Shown: piece by piece, positions 3,916 through 12,562 of the stretch
Layout: the number at the start of each line of letters is the position of its first letter
How positions within the stretch are numbered: position 1 is the stretch's first letter
NCBI GenBank assembly: GCA_016933055.1
Contig: JAFGBS010000008.1
Span: forward strand, 1 to 32,000
Direction of reading: 5' to 3'
Length of the DNA: 32,000 nucleotides
From: Promethearchaeota archaeon
GTDB taxonomy: Archaea > Asgardarchaeota > Lokiarchaeia > Sigyniarchaeales > Promethearchaeaceae
Position numbers and translations under genes: made by a program
The notes under the pieces: model-generated
Databases searched by the model: none
What the model was told of the DNA's origin: nothing
Seen by the model: only the letters and a program-made list of their open reading frames with translations

Positions 3916-6279
3916 TCAGAATTTTAACCCAAATTTATCCAGATATAATCCCATGAAATTCTGGAAGATCTTTACTTTTCCGATTGGTTTTACTTTCAAA
4001 CGATTGGAAAGAACGGCTGAAACGGGATTGAGATTCATATTCATAATATCATCGAATACTTCTTGAGTTCGAAATGAAAGAGTTAAACTGGGTTTAGCTA
4101 GATTCCCTTTACCTGCTGTGAAGTCTCCATTATCTAAGCTCATCCAAATCCATTCGTCTTCAGGTTTATCTTGAATTATAAGTTGAATTCCCTCATTTAC
4201 TGTACCGAATTCCTCAAGAAAATCTCGTTCCGATTGTGCATATAAGCACACAAACTGGATATATTCAAACATTCCCTCAGAGGGCATATTATGATCTTTT
4301 AATAGAGGAATATATTTTTCCTTTAATTGTTCCATTTTCTGTAATTCTTCAGGGGTGATCCTTAGTTTCTCTTTTTCAGCTTGCAATTCTACTCCTTTTC
4401 CAATTATACCAAGTTCTTCCAGCCTTTCAGTAGTAGGTTTACCTGTTTCCCAATCCCATCCACGTAATTTGTAGTAAGTTCGGAGATTTTCTTCTAAATG
4501 AAGATCCACTCCTCCAGTTGGTCCGTGATCAAAGACTTGTAATACATGTGTAGGTAATCGATCATCTCGTCGAGTGATTCCCATATTACACGAAATTAAT
4601 CTCTTAATATTAGTCATTCGTTCTCCCATTTGGAGAATTGATTGAGGAGAGTATCTGAATCCAGTTGCTAAAGATATATATTTTGCAATATCACTAACTT
4701 TCGGTGGAGTTTCAAAAGAACAATTCACTGCAGAATCATCAATCGCTCGAATATCTTGGAATGCAATCACTCCCGCTTCTCTTCCCGTTATATCGTATTT
4801 ATCACCGGGATTTATTTCATATTCTGGAAATATGATTGCTTGACTTTCTACTTGAAACCAATCGCATTTTTCATGATTTGCACCAACACAACATGTCATA
4901 TAAGATAAAGCTTGACCCGCATAGGCACGAGGATCATGCATGGGGATTTCCAAACCTTTCACGTGGGCTGCTAGTTCGGAATCTACTTCTAATATTTCTG
5001 CCATCCGTTTTACTCCCTCCGCCAGTAGGTCCCCAATTCCTTTACGCTCTTGTATTAGTTTCAAAAGTTTTAATATTAAATTAGGATTACCCCACCTTAT
5101 CTCTTCCAAAATAGTGTACTTAAGACGTTTTCTAATCCGGCGTGTGGCTAAATTGTTTTCGACCAAGTAAATTAGAAACGCAATGGAAACTCCGCTCGAA
5201 ATCGTGTCCATTCCATACACATTTCCAAAATGATGCGCTAAGATAACCGATTTTGGATCAAACACCCCCGTGAGAGATCCATACGATGCCATGGATTCGT
5301 ATTCGGGACCATCTACACGAATTTCCTTTCCTTCATAGGGCACTATCGTCTGTTTTGCACATTTTAGTGTACAGCCTGCACATCCGGTAATGAACATGGG
5401 AAATTGTTCTTTCAGAGTTTTCGATGTGAGTAATTCGGCTGAGAATTCATTTTCTGTGAAATAATAACTTGGAACATCTCCTGCAAACATTCCCATATCC
5501 ATATAGGAATTGGTACCAAAAATGTTGAATACTTTGGGTAAAATGGATGCAACCAAATCATCTTCCAGAAGAAAATCGATTTTCTTTCGATGTTCAGTAA
5601 TTTCTTTGGGAGATGCGATTTTTGGCATGGTGGAAGACCTAATGGCTATTGCTTTCAGATTCTTTGATCCCATCACGGCTCCCATTCCACATCTTCCTGC
5701 TGCTCGTCCCTCGTCATTAATTACACATGCATATCTCACTAGATTTTCTCCAGCAACTCCGCAGCATGCAATTTTGATTTGGTCTGATTGCAACTTGTCC
5801 TTAATTGCCTTTTGGGTTTCATATGTATCCATTCCCCAGATATTAGATGCATCTTGGAATTGAATTTCTGCGTTTTCCACATACAAAAATACGGGATTCT
5901 TTGCTTTTCCAGTTATTACCAAAGCATCAAAACCACTGTTATGAAGTGCAATACAGAAATATCCTCCTGAGGTTGACTCTCCCCATTGGTTCGTTAATGG
6001 AGAGATTGCACATACGGAATACCTTCCAGAAGCGGGACGTGTGGAACCAGTGACGGGACCCGTGGCAAAAACTAGTGGATTAATGGGAGAAAAAGGATTT
6101 ATTTTTAACTCCTCATAATCTTCTTTCTTTAATAAGTCATAAATGATTTTAGCGCTTAAACCCGCTCCACCCAAATATGCTCTGGCAATGTTTTCTTCTA
6201 ATGATTTGATATCCACAGTTTTTTCAGTTAAATTTACAAATGCTATTTTTCCATTATATCCATATAATTCTGTAATTAT
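3916..6279 (-). CDS. aor: Aldehyde:ferredoxin oxidoreductase (W-pterin family) with C-terminal SCP2-like domain; start extended upstream of the ORF-track GTG at 6216
   Basis: YGYNGKIAFVNL N-terminus (6264-6229), GRCGMGAVMGSKNLKA, CAGCTLKC plus a fourth Cys (AVNC), DGPEYE, KGLEIPMHDPR; last ~110 aa resemble SCP2 (PSLTLSF...LNPVSAVLSNRLKV). Exact start (ATA 6279 or ATT 6276) is uncertain. Confidence 0.9.
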   Translation of the reverse strand: MITELYGYNGKIAFVNLTEKTVDIKSLEENIARAYLGGAGLSAKIIYDLLKKEDYEELKINPFSPINPLVFATGPVTGSTRPASGRYSVCAISPLTNQWGESTSGGYFCIALHNSGFDALVITGKAKNPVFLYVENAEIQFQDASNIWGMDTYETQKAIKDKLQSDQIKIACCGVAGENLVRYACVINDEGRAAGRCGMGAVMGSKNLKAIAIRSSTMPKIASPKEITEHRKKIDFLLEDDLVASILPKVFNIFGTNSYMDMGMFAGDVPSYYFTENEFSAELLTSKTLKEQFPMFITGCAGCTLKCAKQTIVPYEGKEIRVDGPEYESMASYGSLTGVFDPKSVILAHHFGNVYGMDTISSGVSIAFLIYLVENNLATRRIRKRLKYTILEEIRWGNPNLILKLLKLIQERKGIGDLLAEGVKRMAEILEVDSELAAHVKGLEIPMHDPRAYAGQALSYMTCCVGANHEKCDWFQVESQAIIFPEYEINPGDKYDITGREAGVIAFQDIRAIDDSAVNCSFETPPKVSDIAKYISLATGFRYSPQSILQMGERMTNIKRLISCNMGITRRDDRLPTHVLQVFDHGPTGGVDLHLEENLRTYYKLRGWDWETGKPTTERLEELGIIGKGVELQAEKEKLRITPEELQKMEQLKEKYIPLLKDHNMPSEGMFEYIQFVCLYAQSERDFLEEFGTVNEGIQLIIQDKPEDEWIWMSLDNGDFTAGKGNLAKPSLTLSFRTQEVFDDIMNMNLNPVSAVLSNRLKVKPIGKVKIFQNFMGLYLDKFGLKF

Positions 6280-6288
6280 TTTTCCCTC

Positions 6289-7587
6289 CTAATAGATAAT
6301 CTCTCCATTCCATGCAGATTTGTAAATATTCAGATAATTTTCTAACCTCAAAGGGCGATAGGATGCTAAATGAGCGATATCATTGAGTGCGTATTCAGCC
6401 ATTAATGGAATTTTAGTCTTATAATCCTCTTCCTTGATAATGGGTCTCTTGACTTCTCGCACTGCCACGGCACCTCCTACTTTTCTGATAAATGTTTGGA
6501 TATTTTCAATTAAGGATTCTAATGCTTTTTGACGCGACATTTGCTTATCCTCGACTTCAAATATTGGACATAAATCCCTCCATCGTTCGGTTACTTTCGC
6601 TTGCCATGCAACCGATTGAGGAGTGAATAATCCAACAGAATATCCATGATGCACTTCCATCAATGCACCAAAGCTGTGACCCAGAGCATGTTCTATACCG
6701 GGCATAGAATTAGAAAATCCTAATCCTGCCATCAACGCAGCCCACTGCATATGTTCCCATCCTTCCAGATCTTTTGATCCATATTTAACCAGTCGAGGTA
6801 AATACTGCAAGGTTTCTTTAATTGCAGTAATATTAATTGCTGTAGTCAATGGGTTATTCCAGTTGGATACATATGCTCCCATTGCATGGGCAAACGTATC
6901 TAGACCAGTCCCCATGATGAGGAAAGGAGGGAGATCTTTCACAAAATCTGGGTGAAGAATAACTATCGTCGGTAGAATATCATCTGCAGTGATTCCAATC
7001 TTTTTATGGGGTGCACGACGCGTATCATTTAATACTGCCGCAGTTGTGACTTCCGAACCCGTGCCTATGGTTGTCGGAATTGCAACTAAATGTTTTATTT
7101 TTCGATGTAATCCAATTGAACCGGATACTGCATCTATATTAAGTAGATTCAATTCAGGTTTCTCATACTTAATGTTTACAATTTTTGCAGTATCCATCAC
7201 CGATCCCCCTCCGATAGCCATGAGAATAGTTGGATTGAATTCTTTACAAATTTGTACTCCCTTTTCGATGGTTTCATAAGGGACTTCGGCTTTCACTCCC
7301 TCCCATAATTTAATTTCAAAATTGGTATTTGAGAACGCATCTTCCATTTTTGGTAAGAATTTCTTAGTAAAATTATCGGTTATCACTAAAATTCGTTTTT
7401 CATTATCGTATAGAGATTGATCCATATATTTTGTGGCATCTGCTATCCCATTTTCTCCAGAAAATACTAAATTGGCTTTAAATCCTGCCATTACACTTCG
7501 CATAGCCCTAGCCCCCATCAATCCCATCATTTCTTGGATAAAAGGATCTTCATACCACGGTTTTTGCTCACTGTTATCTTCTTCCAT
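6289..7587 (-). CDS. Iron-containing alcohol dehydrogenase
   Basis: GGGSVMD, PTTIGTGSEVT, GLDTFAH, EHALGH and HHG motifs; AGGTGA RBS supports ATG at 7587. Confidence 0.92.
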   Translation of the reverse strand: MEEDNSEQKPWYEDPFIQEMMGLMGARAMRSVMAGFKANLVFSGENGIADATKYMDQSLYDNEKRILVITDNFTKKFLPKMEDAFSNTNFEIKLWEGVKAEVPYETIEKGVQICKEFNPTILMAIGGGSVMDTAKIVNIKYEKPELNLLNIDAVSGSIGLHRKIKHLVAIPTTIGTGSEVTTAAVLNDTRRAPHKKIGITADDILPTIVILHPDFVKDLPPFLIMGTGLDTFAHAMGAYVSNWNNPLTTAINITAIKETLQYLPRLVKYGSKDLEGWEHMQWAALMAGLGFSNSMPGIEHALGHSFGALMEVHHGYSVGLFTPQSVAWQAKVTERWRDLCPIFEVEDKQMSRQKALESLIENIQTFIRKVGGAVAVREVKRPIIKEEDYKTKIPLMAEYALNDIAHLASYRPLRLENYLNIYKSAWNGEIIY

Positions 7588-11182: not shown

Positions 11183-12562
11183 TTAAATTCGATGGTATAA
11201 ATAACGATCAAAAGTTGCATATGAAATTTTTCCTGTTTTTTCATCCCGTACGAATTGAATTTTTTCTCTTTGATCTGGGAATCCCGTAGGGATGGTAAAA
11301 ATGAGATTTTCAGGGTCTTCTACTGAAATAGGGATATCAAAATCCCCGTCATCGATTTCAAGATGAGCCATCAGTAGGGGACCCTTGGTTTCCAATTTAA
11401 GAGAATACAATTCTCTATAGCTTTTATATGTACCTTCTACCATGGAAATAAGGTTTTTGTATTTTAGTGCGGGTAGTTCTTCAGGGTCATTACCAGTTAA
11501 GATCGCTAAGATCCCTTCTGTTATCAATCGACAATTCGCATTAGCATCATTTTCCGCTGAAAATACTCCGATATTCAACTCTGGTAAAATCATTAATGAA
11601 GCTGTGGATGATGACAATCCCCCTCCGTGCTGCAATAATGTGGTCCCGAATCTTTCTTCTCTCACCCATCCCAACCCATAGTATCCCTCTCCTTTGTAAG
11701 AATATGGGCATTTAATTATGGGATTCCACAGTATTTCACAAGTTTCGGGGTGTAAAATTAAAGAGTCATGAAATTGCCCACGGTGGAGGATAAGTTGAAT
11801 ATAATTAGCCATTTCATGTGCTGAGCTAAGAATACCACCGGGAGGATCAAGAAAGTCACTGTAAGGGTGAGAATATGTGGTAACCTTATTGTCTTCTATA
11901 CAATATCCTGTGCTGAAATCGTTTAGTGAATCTTTTTTTACGTCATCTGAATTATAGCTCGTTCGTATCATTTCCAGTTTTGACAAACAATGTTCTCTCA
12001 TATACTCCGAAAATTTCTGTCCCGTTATATCTTCTATAATATACCCTATTAATGCATACATGTCATTATTATAAAAAAAACGTTCCCCAGGCTCGAACAG
12101 CCGTTCTTTTTCTGCACTTTTTACATACCATTCTAAATCCGAACGACTAATAATAGGAGTAAAATCTATATGTCGCTTATTGTGGTGTAACATTTCTATA
12201 ATCGTACCATCAAGAGCTGGAAAACCCGAGGAATGGCTTAAAAGATGTTTCAGAAGAATTGGTTTATCTGGGTTTTCCGGAAACCAAGGAAAGTACTTTT
12301 TTATGGGATCACTAATATTGAGCAATCCCTTTTCTTGCAACTGTAAAATTGCTAGTGCAGTAAAGGATTTTGATATGCTTCCGATTCCAATTAGAGTATT
12401 CTCGGTCATTGGTAAAAGTTCTTCAAGGTTCCGGTATCCAAATCCCCTTTCAAAAATAATTTTGTCGTCCTTTACCACAGACACGGATAATCCAGGTACC
12501 TTATGTTTTGCCATTAAATTCATTATTAACGATGTAAAGCAATCATCATAATTCGAGCTCAT
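11183..12562 (-). CDS. Serine hydrolase, beta-lactamase/AmpC-like (CubicO/Pab87-type peptidase)
   Basis: SxxK (SISK), YxN (YNN) and HxG (QHGG) motifs; about 100-aa C-terminal beta-rich extension; no signal peptide. Confidence 0.85.
   Translation of the reverse strand: MSSNYDDCFTSLIMNLMAKHKVPGLSVSVVKDDKIIFERGFGYRNLEELLPMTENTLIGIGSISKSFTALAILQLQEKGLLNISDPIKKYFPWFPENPDKPILLKHLLSHSSGFPALDGTIIEMLHHNKRHIDFTPIISRSDLEWYVKSAEKERLFEPGERFFYNNDMYALIGYIIEDITGQKFSEYMREHCLSKLEMIRTSYNSDDVKKDSLNDFSTGYCIEDNKVTTYSHPYSDFLDPPGGILSSAHEMANYIQLILHRGQFHDSLILHPETCEILWNPIIKCPYSYKGEGYYGLGWVREERFGTTLLQHGGGLSSSTASLMILPELNIGVFSAENDANANCRLITEGILAILTGNDPEELPALKYKNLISMVEGTYKSYRELYSLKLETKGPLLMAHLEIDDGDFDIPISVEDPENLIFTIPTGFPDQREKIQFVRDEKTGKISYATFDRYLYHRI

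Follow-up and report, generated by a model that had tools for sequence, protein, structure and literature searches.

The ADH-AOR junction

The window considered here is the whole stretch of 32,000 nucleotides at the beginning of contig JAFGBS010000008.1 (assembly GCA_016933055.1, positions 1 to 32,000) of a Promethearchaeota archaeon. On its minus strand, a gene for an iron-containing alcohol dehydrogenase (Fe-ADH, hereafter ADH) is followed directly, in the same frame, by a gene for an aldehyde ferredoxin oxidoreductase (AOR) whose conserved N-terminus is not preceded by any canonical start codon. The genome to which the window belongs (G000; the window lies on its contig C15) comprises 3.76 Mb in 36 contigs, is 91% complete, and has 35% G+C. 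We regard the organism as an Asgard archaeon of the Lokiarchaeia type.

The ADH gene covers 6289..7587 and consists of 432 codons plus the stop codon TAG at 6289..6291. Its product matches the Pfam families Fe-ADH (PF00465, 3e-35) and ADH_Fe_C (PF25137, 2e-28). The longest open reading frame (ORF) for ADH begins at GTG 7596, and this GTG belongs to the ribosome-binding motif AGGTGA. The start is most likely ATG 7587 behind this motif rather than GTG 7596, judging by the predicted N-terminus, which matches the M(S/G)EE..WYED of relatives.

We read the minus strand over 6420-6100 and translated 7596-3916. After ADH, the frame runs E-I-I-Y-TAG(6291-6289)-E-G-K-I-I-T-E-L-Y-G-Y-N-G-K-I-A-F-V-N-L-T-E-K-T-V, where the two consecutive isoleucines are ATA (6277..6279) and ATT (6274..6276) and the final valine is GTG (6214..6216). 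Four sense codons, or 12 nt, are found between TAG and ATT, and an AGGAGG motif at 6285..6290 overlaps the ADH stop. In the AOR frame, the number of ATG, GTG, and TTG codons between TAG 6291 and GTG 6216 is zero. An initial annotation of this DNA had reported the same junction and the same absence of canonical codons; the former agrees with our reading letter for letter, and the latter is confirmed by the sequence and the ORF list. GTG 6216 is the AOR start in the mechanically made ORF list and gives a product of 766 aa (P0001). This GTG is not preceded by a Shine-Dalgarno (SD) motif. An out-of-frame ATG at 6266-6264, within TTATATGGA, was also considered as a start and rejected because its frame is only six codons long and ends at TAG.

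The AOR coding sequence as proposed extends over 3916..6276 (786 codons plus TAA), with AFOR_N at approximately 6252-5635, AFOR_C at approximately 5532-4405, and a C-terminal extension at 4404-3919. Both Pfam domains are matched in full length (AFOR_N, 2.5e-74, profile positions 1-198 of 199; AFOR_C, 3.1e-94, positions 19-385 of 385), and the protein aligns to residues 1-601 of 605 of Pyrococcus furiosus AOR (1AOR; E 4.3e-107). Position 1 of the AFOR_N profile is the G of GKIAFVNL, 12 residues upstream of GTG 6216. Residue 1 of 1AOR is the L of ELYGYNG, 17 residues before this GTG, which lies inside AFOR_N and corresponds to residue 18 of the aligned 1AOR chain. Furthermore, residue 1 of the Haloferax volcanii WOR83 structure aligns to the ATT codon itself. 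A start at GTG would cost AOR about 20 conserved N-terminal residues. Since the profile and structure alignments all begin before GTG, such a start would delete the first strand of the fold, as the initial annotation had maintained. When 502 leaders with 15 or more codons are ranked by coding score, the AOR leader comes second.

The domain architecture, including the region of the CxxCxxxC cluster motif, is shared with the P. furiosus enzyme. The window AOR differs from it in its C-terminal extension of about 160 residues and in the position of its gene directly after the Fe-ADH gene. The SCP2-like match in the extension (approximately 4203-3949) is weak, with an E value of 0.0012 and 19.6 bits against a cut-off of 21.3 bits. 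Some 25 homologues in the database (785-801 aa, with the labels Heimdall, Asgard, or Bathyarchaeia) have the same extension (3919-4404). It is absent from the Loki orthologues, which have about 625 aa.

Orthologous junctions in related archaea

The 120 best homologues of AOR, from a search that covered proteins of 432-1376 aa, were used for comparison. In the databases, these homologues are labelled Lokiarchaeota, Promethearchaeota, Heimdallarchaeota, or Asgard, and the genomes of the relatives include single-contig assemblies of 4.3, 4.4, and 6.0 Mb. The closest homologues (P0002-P0005) show 68-71% identity, carry the same C-terminal extension, and are 785-787 aa long against 786 aa as proposed for the window AOR; over the homologues more widely, the corresponding range is 785-788 aa. 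Their contigs have the same gene order as the window, namely a 182-aa ORF, ADH (428 aa), AOR, and an Exo_endo_phos gene. The N-termini of the four proteins read MTEL(I/L)GYN(G/R)KIAY, and the window reads ITEL at the equivalent place.

The junctions of these four homologues are directly comparable with that of the window. Two loci (L031 and L032) read TAT TAG GAG GAA AAG CAT ATG ACG GAA TTA, the third (L033) reads TAT TAG GAG GAG AGA AAA CAG ATG ACA GAA TTG, and the fourth (L034) reads TTT TGA GGA GAA AAG ATG ATG ACA GAA TTA. Thus, TAGGAGG or TGAGGAG, a spacer, and ATG ACx GAA TTx in the homologues correspond to TAGGAGGGAAAAATA ATT ACA GAA TTA in the window, and ATT 6276-6274 occupies, codon for codon, the position of the ATG in all four. 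The same SD motif is present at the same distance in these loci.

In 20 orthologous loci from the same taxonomic order (50-61% identity), the ADH-then-AOR pair is mostly kept, and the AOR genes all begin at a canonical codon of their own (ATG, or TTG in L020). The junction of two of the loci, L011 and L012, can be aligned codon by codon. These loci read TAG GGG GGA AAA GTT ATG TCA GAA TTG TTT GGA TAT AAT GGA AAA, and the window reads TAG GAG GGA AAA ATA ATT ACA GAA TTA TAT GGA TAT AAT GGA AAA. The alignment of the junction in relatives, which the initial annotation had named as a check, therefore places their ATG on the window's ATT. The stop codon of ADH is not conserved and is TAG, TGA, or TAA in relatives.

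The ribosome-binding site

The 16S rRNA of this genome ends in ...GGATCACCTCCT, which is complementary to the AGGAGG at 6285-6290, and the SD consensus is accordingly AGGAGGTGAT. Spacing was measured on aligned motifs by counting the nucleotides that separate the start codon from the final G of GGAGG. Among 1941 genes with ATG as their first canonical codon, the spacing peaks at 7-10 nt (74, 44, 66, and 49 cases), and a spacing of 5 nt is rare (9 cases). The spacing is 8 nt for ATT 6276 and 5 nt for ATA 6279. The initial annotation had favoured a non-AUG start at either of the two codons behind an AGGAGG that overlaps the TAG. This proposal gains support and is narrowed to ATT 6276-6274 because homology and SD spacing agree on it. 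ATA 6279-6277, which would give a protein of 787 residues, is also a near-cognate codon behind the same SD, and ATA seems to serve other genes of this genome, such as those for an epimerase and aIF1 (see below). With its rare spacing, and with the ATG of relatives lined up with ATT one codon downstream, initiation at ATA is nevertheless highly improbable.

The overlap of the ADH stop with the SD motif is not peculiar to this gene. In 3127 long ORFs of the genome, the stop overlaps an SD 5-mer in 42 of 550 cases for TAG (7.6%), in 81 of 649 for TGA (12.5%), and in 11 of 1928 for TAA (0.6%). TAG and TGA overlap the SD more often because AGGAG and GGTGA contain these stops. The ADH stop behaves in the same way as other TAGs and is therefore regarded as a by-product of TAGGAGG.

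At AOR, no canonical codon precedes the conserved N-terminus, the orthologues have their ATG at the position of the ATT, and an SD motif lies at a functional distance. We consider it very probable, from these comparisons, that AOR is a separate cistron translated from a near-cognate AUU (ATT 6276-6274) behind its own SD, with a product of 786 aa.

Candidate near-cognate starts in other genes

A similar arrangement is found in genes outside the window, including two essential single-copy ones. The gene for ribosomal protein uS12 (G000:C22:43178, plus strand) reads AGGTG-TAA-AAT-ATT-CCA-GGT-TCA-AAA-TCT-CCA-AGA-GGT, and its ATT aligns to the ATG of M-A-R-(S/T)-K-S-P-(R/K)-G in three relatives (G006, G009, and G010). 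This ATT is kept in the sister genome G001 of the same genus and in G002, whose gene offers no ATG further downstream. At the orthologous position, G015 and G023 have ATA and G020 has ATT. With loci L069, L070, L080, L087, and L089 included, ATT or ATA, each time behind GGTG, takes the place of the orthologous ATG in four or more genera of the order. Serine codons in this N-terminal stretch are swapped synonymously between TCT and AGT, and the stretch is therefore coding and translated. In the single gene for the initiation factor aIF1/SUI1 (G000:C6:28138-28455, plus strand), the CPKC...CVC zinc knuckle is not preceded by any ATG, GTG, or TTG. The candidate start is an ATA that G001 shares and that corresponds to ATG in G009 and to TTG in G004. 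From this alignment, even the factor responsible for start-codon fidelity seems to begin at a weak codon.

Six further genes carry ATC, ATA, or CTG behind an SD. In the gene for an S-adenosylmethionine (SAM) methyltransferase (G000:C17:715865), TAGGAGG and 8 nt precede an ATC, and the first canonical codon lies 60 codons downstream. Motif I and Pfam position 1 precede that codon, and orthologues have ATG at the equivalent place. A gene for an NAD-epimerase (C28:96663) has GGTGA, 6 nt, and ATA, with the beginning of the Pfam domain and the Rossmann motif GGAGFLG upstream of the first canonical codon. The start position is ATC in G001 and ATG in G004, G009, and G010. GGTGA, 6 nt, and ATA are also found at the gene for a Nitro_FeMo-Co protein (C15:150610), where the domain begins before the canonical start and the ATA is kept in G001. 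The Pfam domain likewise starts before any canonical codon in an MFS transporter (ATA; C6:358865), a KTI12-like ATPase (ATC; C15:190324), and a PAPS-reductase-like protein (CTG; C26:1180). In other candidates with an SD and one of these ATH codons (ATT, ATA, or ATC), namely MFS_2, esterase, PPS_PS, ABC_tran, TauE, and Aldedh, the Pfam domain begins after the first canonical codon, which neither supports nor contradicts a near-cognate start.

The pattern is also visible in genome-wide counts. We examined in-frame 5' leaders of long stop-to-stop ORFs and counted positions that lay not more than 12 codons after the preceding stop and 8 codons or more ahead of the first ATG, GTG, or TTG. Of 826 ATH codons, 23 have an SD at 7-10 nt, compared with 68 of the 6851 leader codons overall (ATH included); these counts hold as orders of magnitude, the ORF set being crude and a few neighbouring codons being counted twice. 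The odds ratio for a correctly spaced SD is 3.8 (p 2e-6) when ATH codons are compared with other leader codons and 2.8 (p 8e-4) when they are compared with codons made of A and T only (AAA, TTT, AAT, TTA, and TAT). Values for CTG (3 of 41) and ACG (3 of 49) are also high, and those for AAG and AGG are not. At SD spacings of 3-6, 11-14, 15-18, and 19-22 nt, ATH codons are not enriched (odds ratios 0.76-0.90). ATT is not enriched when only GGAGG-type cores are counted (5 of 410 vs 68 of 8252); the enrichment appears only with the SD defined from the organism's own 16S 3' end and with aligned spacing. The excess of SD-led ATH starts is roughly 15-20, compared with about 230 SD-led ATG starts. ACG codons behind a well-spaced SD are found in leaders at G000:C17:370464, C17:336478, and C31:14016, and these codons may be starts.

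Alternative explanations

The initial annotation had also proposed that the TAG at 6291-6289 is read through, possibly as pyrrolysine, to give an ADH-AOR-SCP2 fusion. Such a product would have about 1220 aa. ADH and AOR do share a frame, only four sense codons apart, and the in-frame spacing of 12 nt recurs in many relatives. The recurrence is explained, however, by a stop embedded in the SD and followed by an optimal spacer, and the four linker codons are not conserved. Every relative's junction has a stop codon, its own SD, and its own start, and among them are junctions with TGA or TAA, with additional stops, or with the two genes in different frames. The remark that this is the only TAG among 24 genes holds locally, yet it carries little meaning since TAG ends 550 of the 3127 long ORFs (17.6%; TAA 1928, TGA 649) and the probability of not more than one TAG in 24 genes is 0.06. 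The suggested search for pyrrolysine machinery in this 91% complete genome did not find PylS (best PylS_Cterm match 25.8 bits, cut-off 178 bits) or PylD (best 19.3 bits, cut-off 150 bits); the search did not include pylB and pylC. Run with and without introns, aragorn predicted no tRNA whose anticodon is CUA, although tRNAs can be missed in a metagenome-assembled genome. Naturally fused ADH-AOR proteins, another check suggested, are absent from the 120 best homologues, the longest of which has 801 aa in a search range that reached 1376 aa. In contrast to AdhE-like bifunctional proteins, ADH and AOR are separated in every relative by a stop codon and by the SD and start of AOR. On these comparisons, we reject a fusion of AOR to ADH by read-through, the chance of which seems close to nil.

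A second group of explanations accepts the separate cistron and questions the ATT. If the organism truly had ATG at 6276-6274, a sequencing or assembly error of a single base would be enough, and the initial annotation had noted a possible ATG>ATA error. The Logan assembly of run X1, made independently and possibly from the source sample, is identical over 5800-6800 (1001 bases) at a depth of 19. Contigs of run X2, from a hot-spring metagenome of another study, are 100% identical in both flanks, end at 6268, and resume at 6354, so that the site itself is not covered. The break over the junction may come from low depth, from filtering, or from a strain difference in or close to the start codon. 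The recurrence of the pattern is a stronger argument than the agreement of two assemblers; its presence in at least seven other genes could come from error only if start codons were hit at an implausible rate, and several of these cases recur in the assembly of another genome. An error is thus a shade less probable even than a start at ATA. Another explanation is a recent ATG>ATT mutation that inactivated or strongly reduced AOR, with the open frame reflecting the short time since the mutation. The start position is ATG, TTG, or GTG in all examined AOR orthologues, and the genome has nine AOR-family genes, that is, eight besides the window AOR, so that a loss could be tolerated. On the other hand, the frame of 786 codons is fully open with full-length AFOR_N and AFOR_C matches, and a strong SD is retained at optimal spacing before the ATT. 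Codons of the same class start the essential genes for uS12 and aIF1 in this genome and its sister, and ATT behind an SD is therefore evidently usable here. A start-loss allele is unlikely, though it is the least improbable of these alternatives.

Several observations weigh against translation of AOR from ATT. The ATT is not conserved at AOR, as the examined orthologues all start with ATG or, in a few cases, TTG or GTG. No AOR relative of more than 71% identity was found in a large protein database, and the same-genus genome G001 (76% complete) has no orthologue of the window AOR (best E 1e-42). JGI metagenome contigs were scanned for near-identical strains with an exact pattern that accepted any triplet at the start codon, and gave no match, and an exact look-up did not find the 766-aa product on any other contig. 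In run X2, the only independent sample, the contig gap (6269-6353) leaves the ATT unseen. Two metatranscriptome runs of the source study have no contig on 5800-6800 and are silent either way on expression. Finally, a review of archaeal initiation names only AUG, GUG, and UUG (PMC7531240), and aIF1 destabilises complexes on non-AUG codons (PMC6237735).

Proposed initiation at AUU and comparison with known systems

If AOR is translated from AUU, the steps of initiation can be proposed from established SD-led initiation in archaea and bacteria (PMC6237735, PMC7531240). The ADH-AOR mRNA would carry the AGGAGG that overlaps the ADH stop, and pairing of this motif with the 16S rRNA 3' end would bring the AUU, at its spacing of 8 nt, into the P site. 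The initiator Met-tRNA would decode AUU as methionine and begin the 786-residue protein M-T-E-L-Y-G-Y-N-G-K.... With just 12 nt between the ADH stop and the AUU, ribosomes terminating at ADH may re-initiate at AOR by translational coupling. The weak AUU codon probably reduces the output of AOR relative to ADH. The ATT of AOR would then be one case of a genome-wide habit, in which ATT, ATA, and ATC, and perhaps CTG and ACG, serve as starts behind a well-spaced SD.

Near-cognate initiation is known from bacteria. In E. coli, infC, which encodes IF3, and pcnB are initiated at AUU, and NCBI table 11 counts ATT, ATC, ATA, and CTG among its alternative initiators. As in these two genes, a near-cognate AUU behind an SD appears to start an otherwise ordinary conserved gene at AOR. 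The likeness to infC goes further, since the gene of a fidelity factor appears to start on a weak codon here too, at AUA in the case of aIF1. In contrast to E. coli, the host here is an archaeon with eukaryote-type aIF1, aIF1A, and aIF2, and the candidates are many genes instead of two or three. In Deinococcus deserti, non-canonical initiation codons were reportedly found by N-terminal proteomics when the genome annotation was refined. This is also a prokaryote with non-canonical initiation codons, but it is a bacterium with direct peptide evidence, whereas the AOR start is predicted from sequence.

In archaea, near-cognate codons accounted for about 30% of the putative alternative initiation sites in a ribosome-profiling study of H. 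volcanii, which set these sites aside (PMC7261190). A "likely rare ATT start codon" behind a ribosome-binding site was inferred in a 2026 paper for the Asgard tubulin gene AtubA of Kariarchaeaceae (PMC13394414). As at AOR, the upstream ATT in AtubA restores the first beta-strand and puts the ribosome-binding site at a plausible distance. The tubulin case concerns one gene in another Asgard class and comes from structure prediction, whereas the AOR case is based on orthologue alignment, SD-spacing statistics, and recurrence in the genome. A limited full-text search, which is no proof of absence, found no publication on systematic ATH initiation in Asgard archaea.

Implications for the lineage

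A near-cognate start is already a known type, and the value of AOR would lie mainly in being a clean case of a lineage-wide feature. The locus is unusually clean as an example, with the orthologues' ATG at the identical codon, an identical SD, and identical spacing. If the start is at ATT, the correct AOR product has 786 aa. The 766-aa product called from GTG, without its first beta-strand, would be a misleading basis for phylogeny, for cloning and expression, and for structure prediction.

We lean slightly towards a broader proposal, in which the lineage has relaxed or tuned its start-codon stringency. AUU, AUA, and AUC, and possibly CUG and ACG, would be genuine starts for dozens of SD-led genes, including those for uS12 and aIF1. 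The level of aIF1 would set the translation of weak-codon genes such as AOR in a feedback similar to that of IF3 and eIF1, and standard gene finders would truncate a noticeable share of Asgard proteins. Such a habit is outside published accounts of archaeal initiation, apart from the one anecdotal ATT start in Asgard tubulin. If it is commonplace among the archaea nearest to eukaryotes, the aIF1 gene included, it bears on the evolution of start fidelity between SD-guided and scanning initiation. It would also argue for the re-annotation of Asgard genomes with ATT, ATA, and ATC allowed as starts.

Other observations

At G020:C458:15906-16676, the open frame that contains a distant AOR paralogue (40% identity) is 1149 aa long and may encode a fusion of AOR with a further domain. 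In G000, a helicase gene at C17:~12151-12153 (plus strand) has an in-frame TGA inside the conserved motif ...NV[x]VSTSVAEEGLDI, at a position that we take to be normally Leu. The gene may be broken, or the TGA may be an error or a recoded codon. A tRNA-SeC with the anticodon TCA is predicted in G000 by aragorn (c[127504,127594]), and the genome therefore probably encodes selenoproteins.

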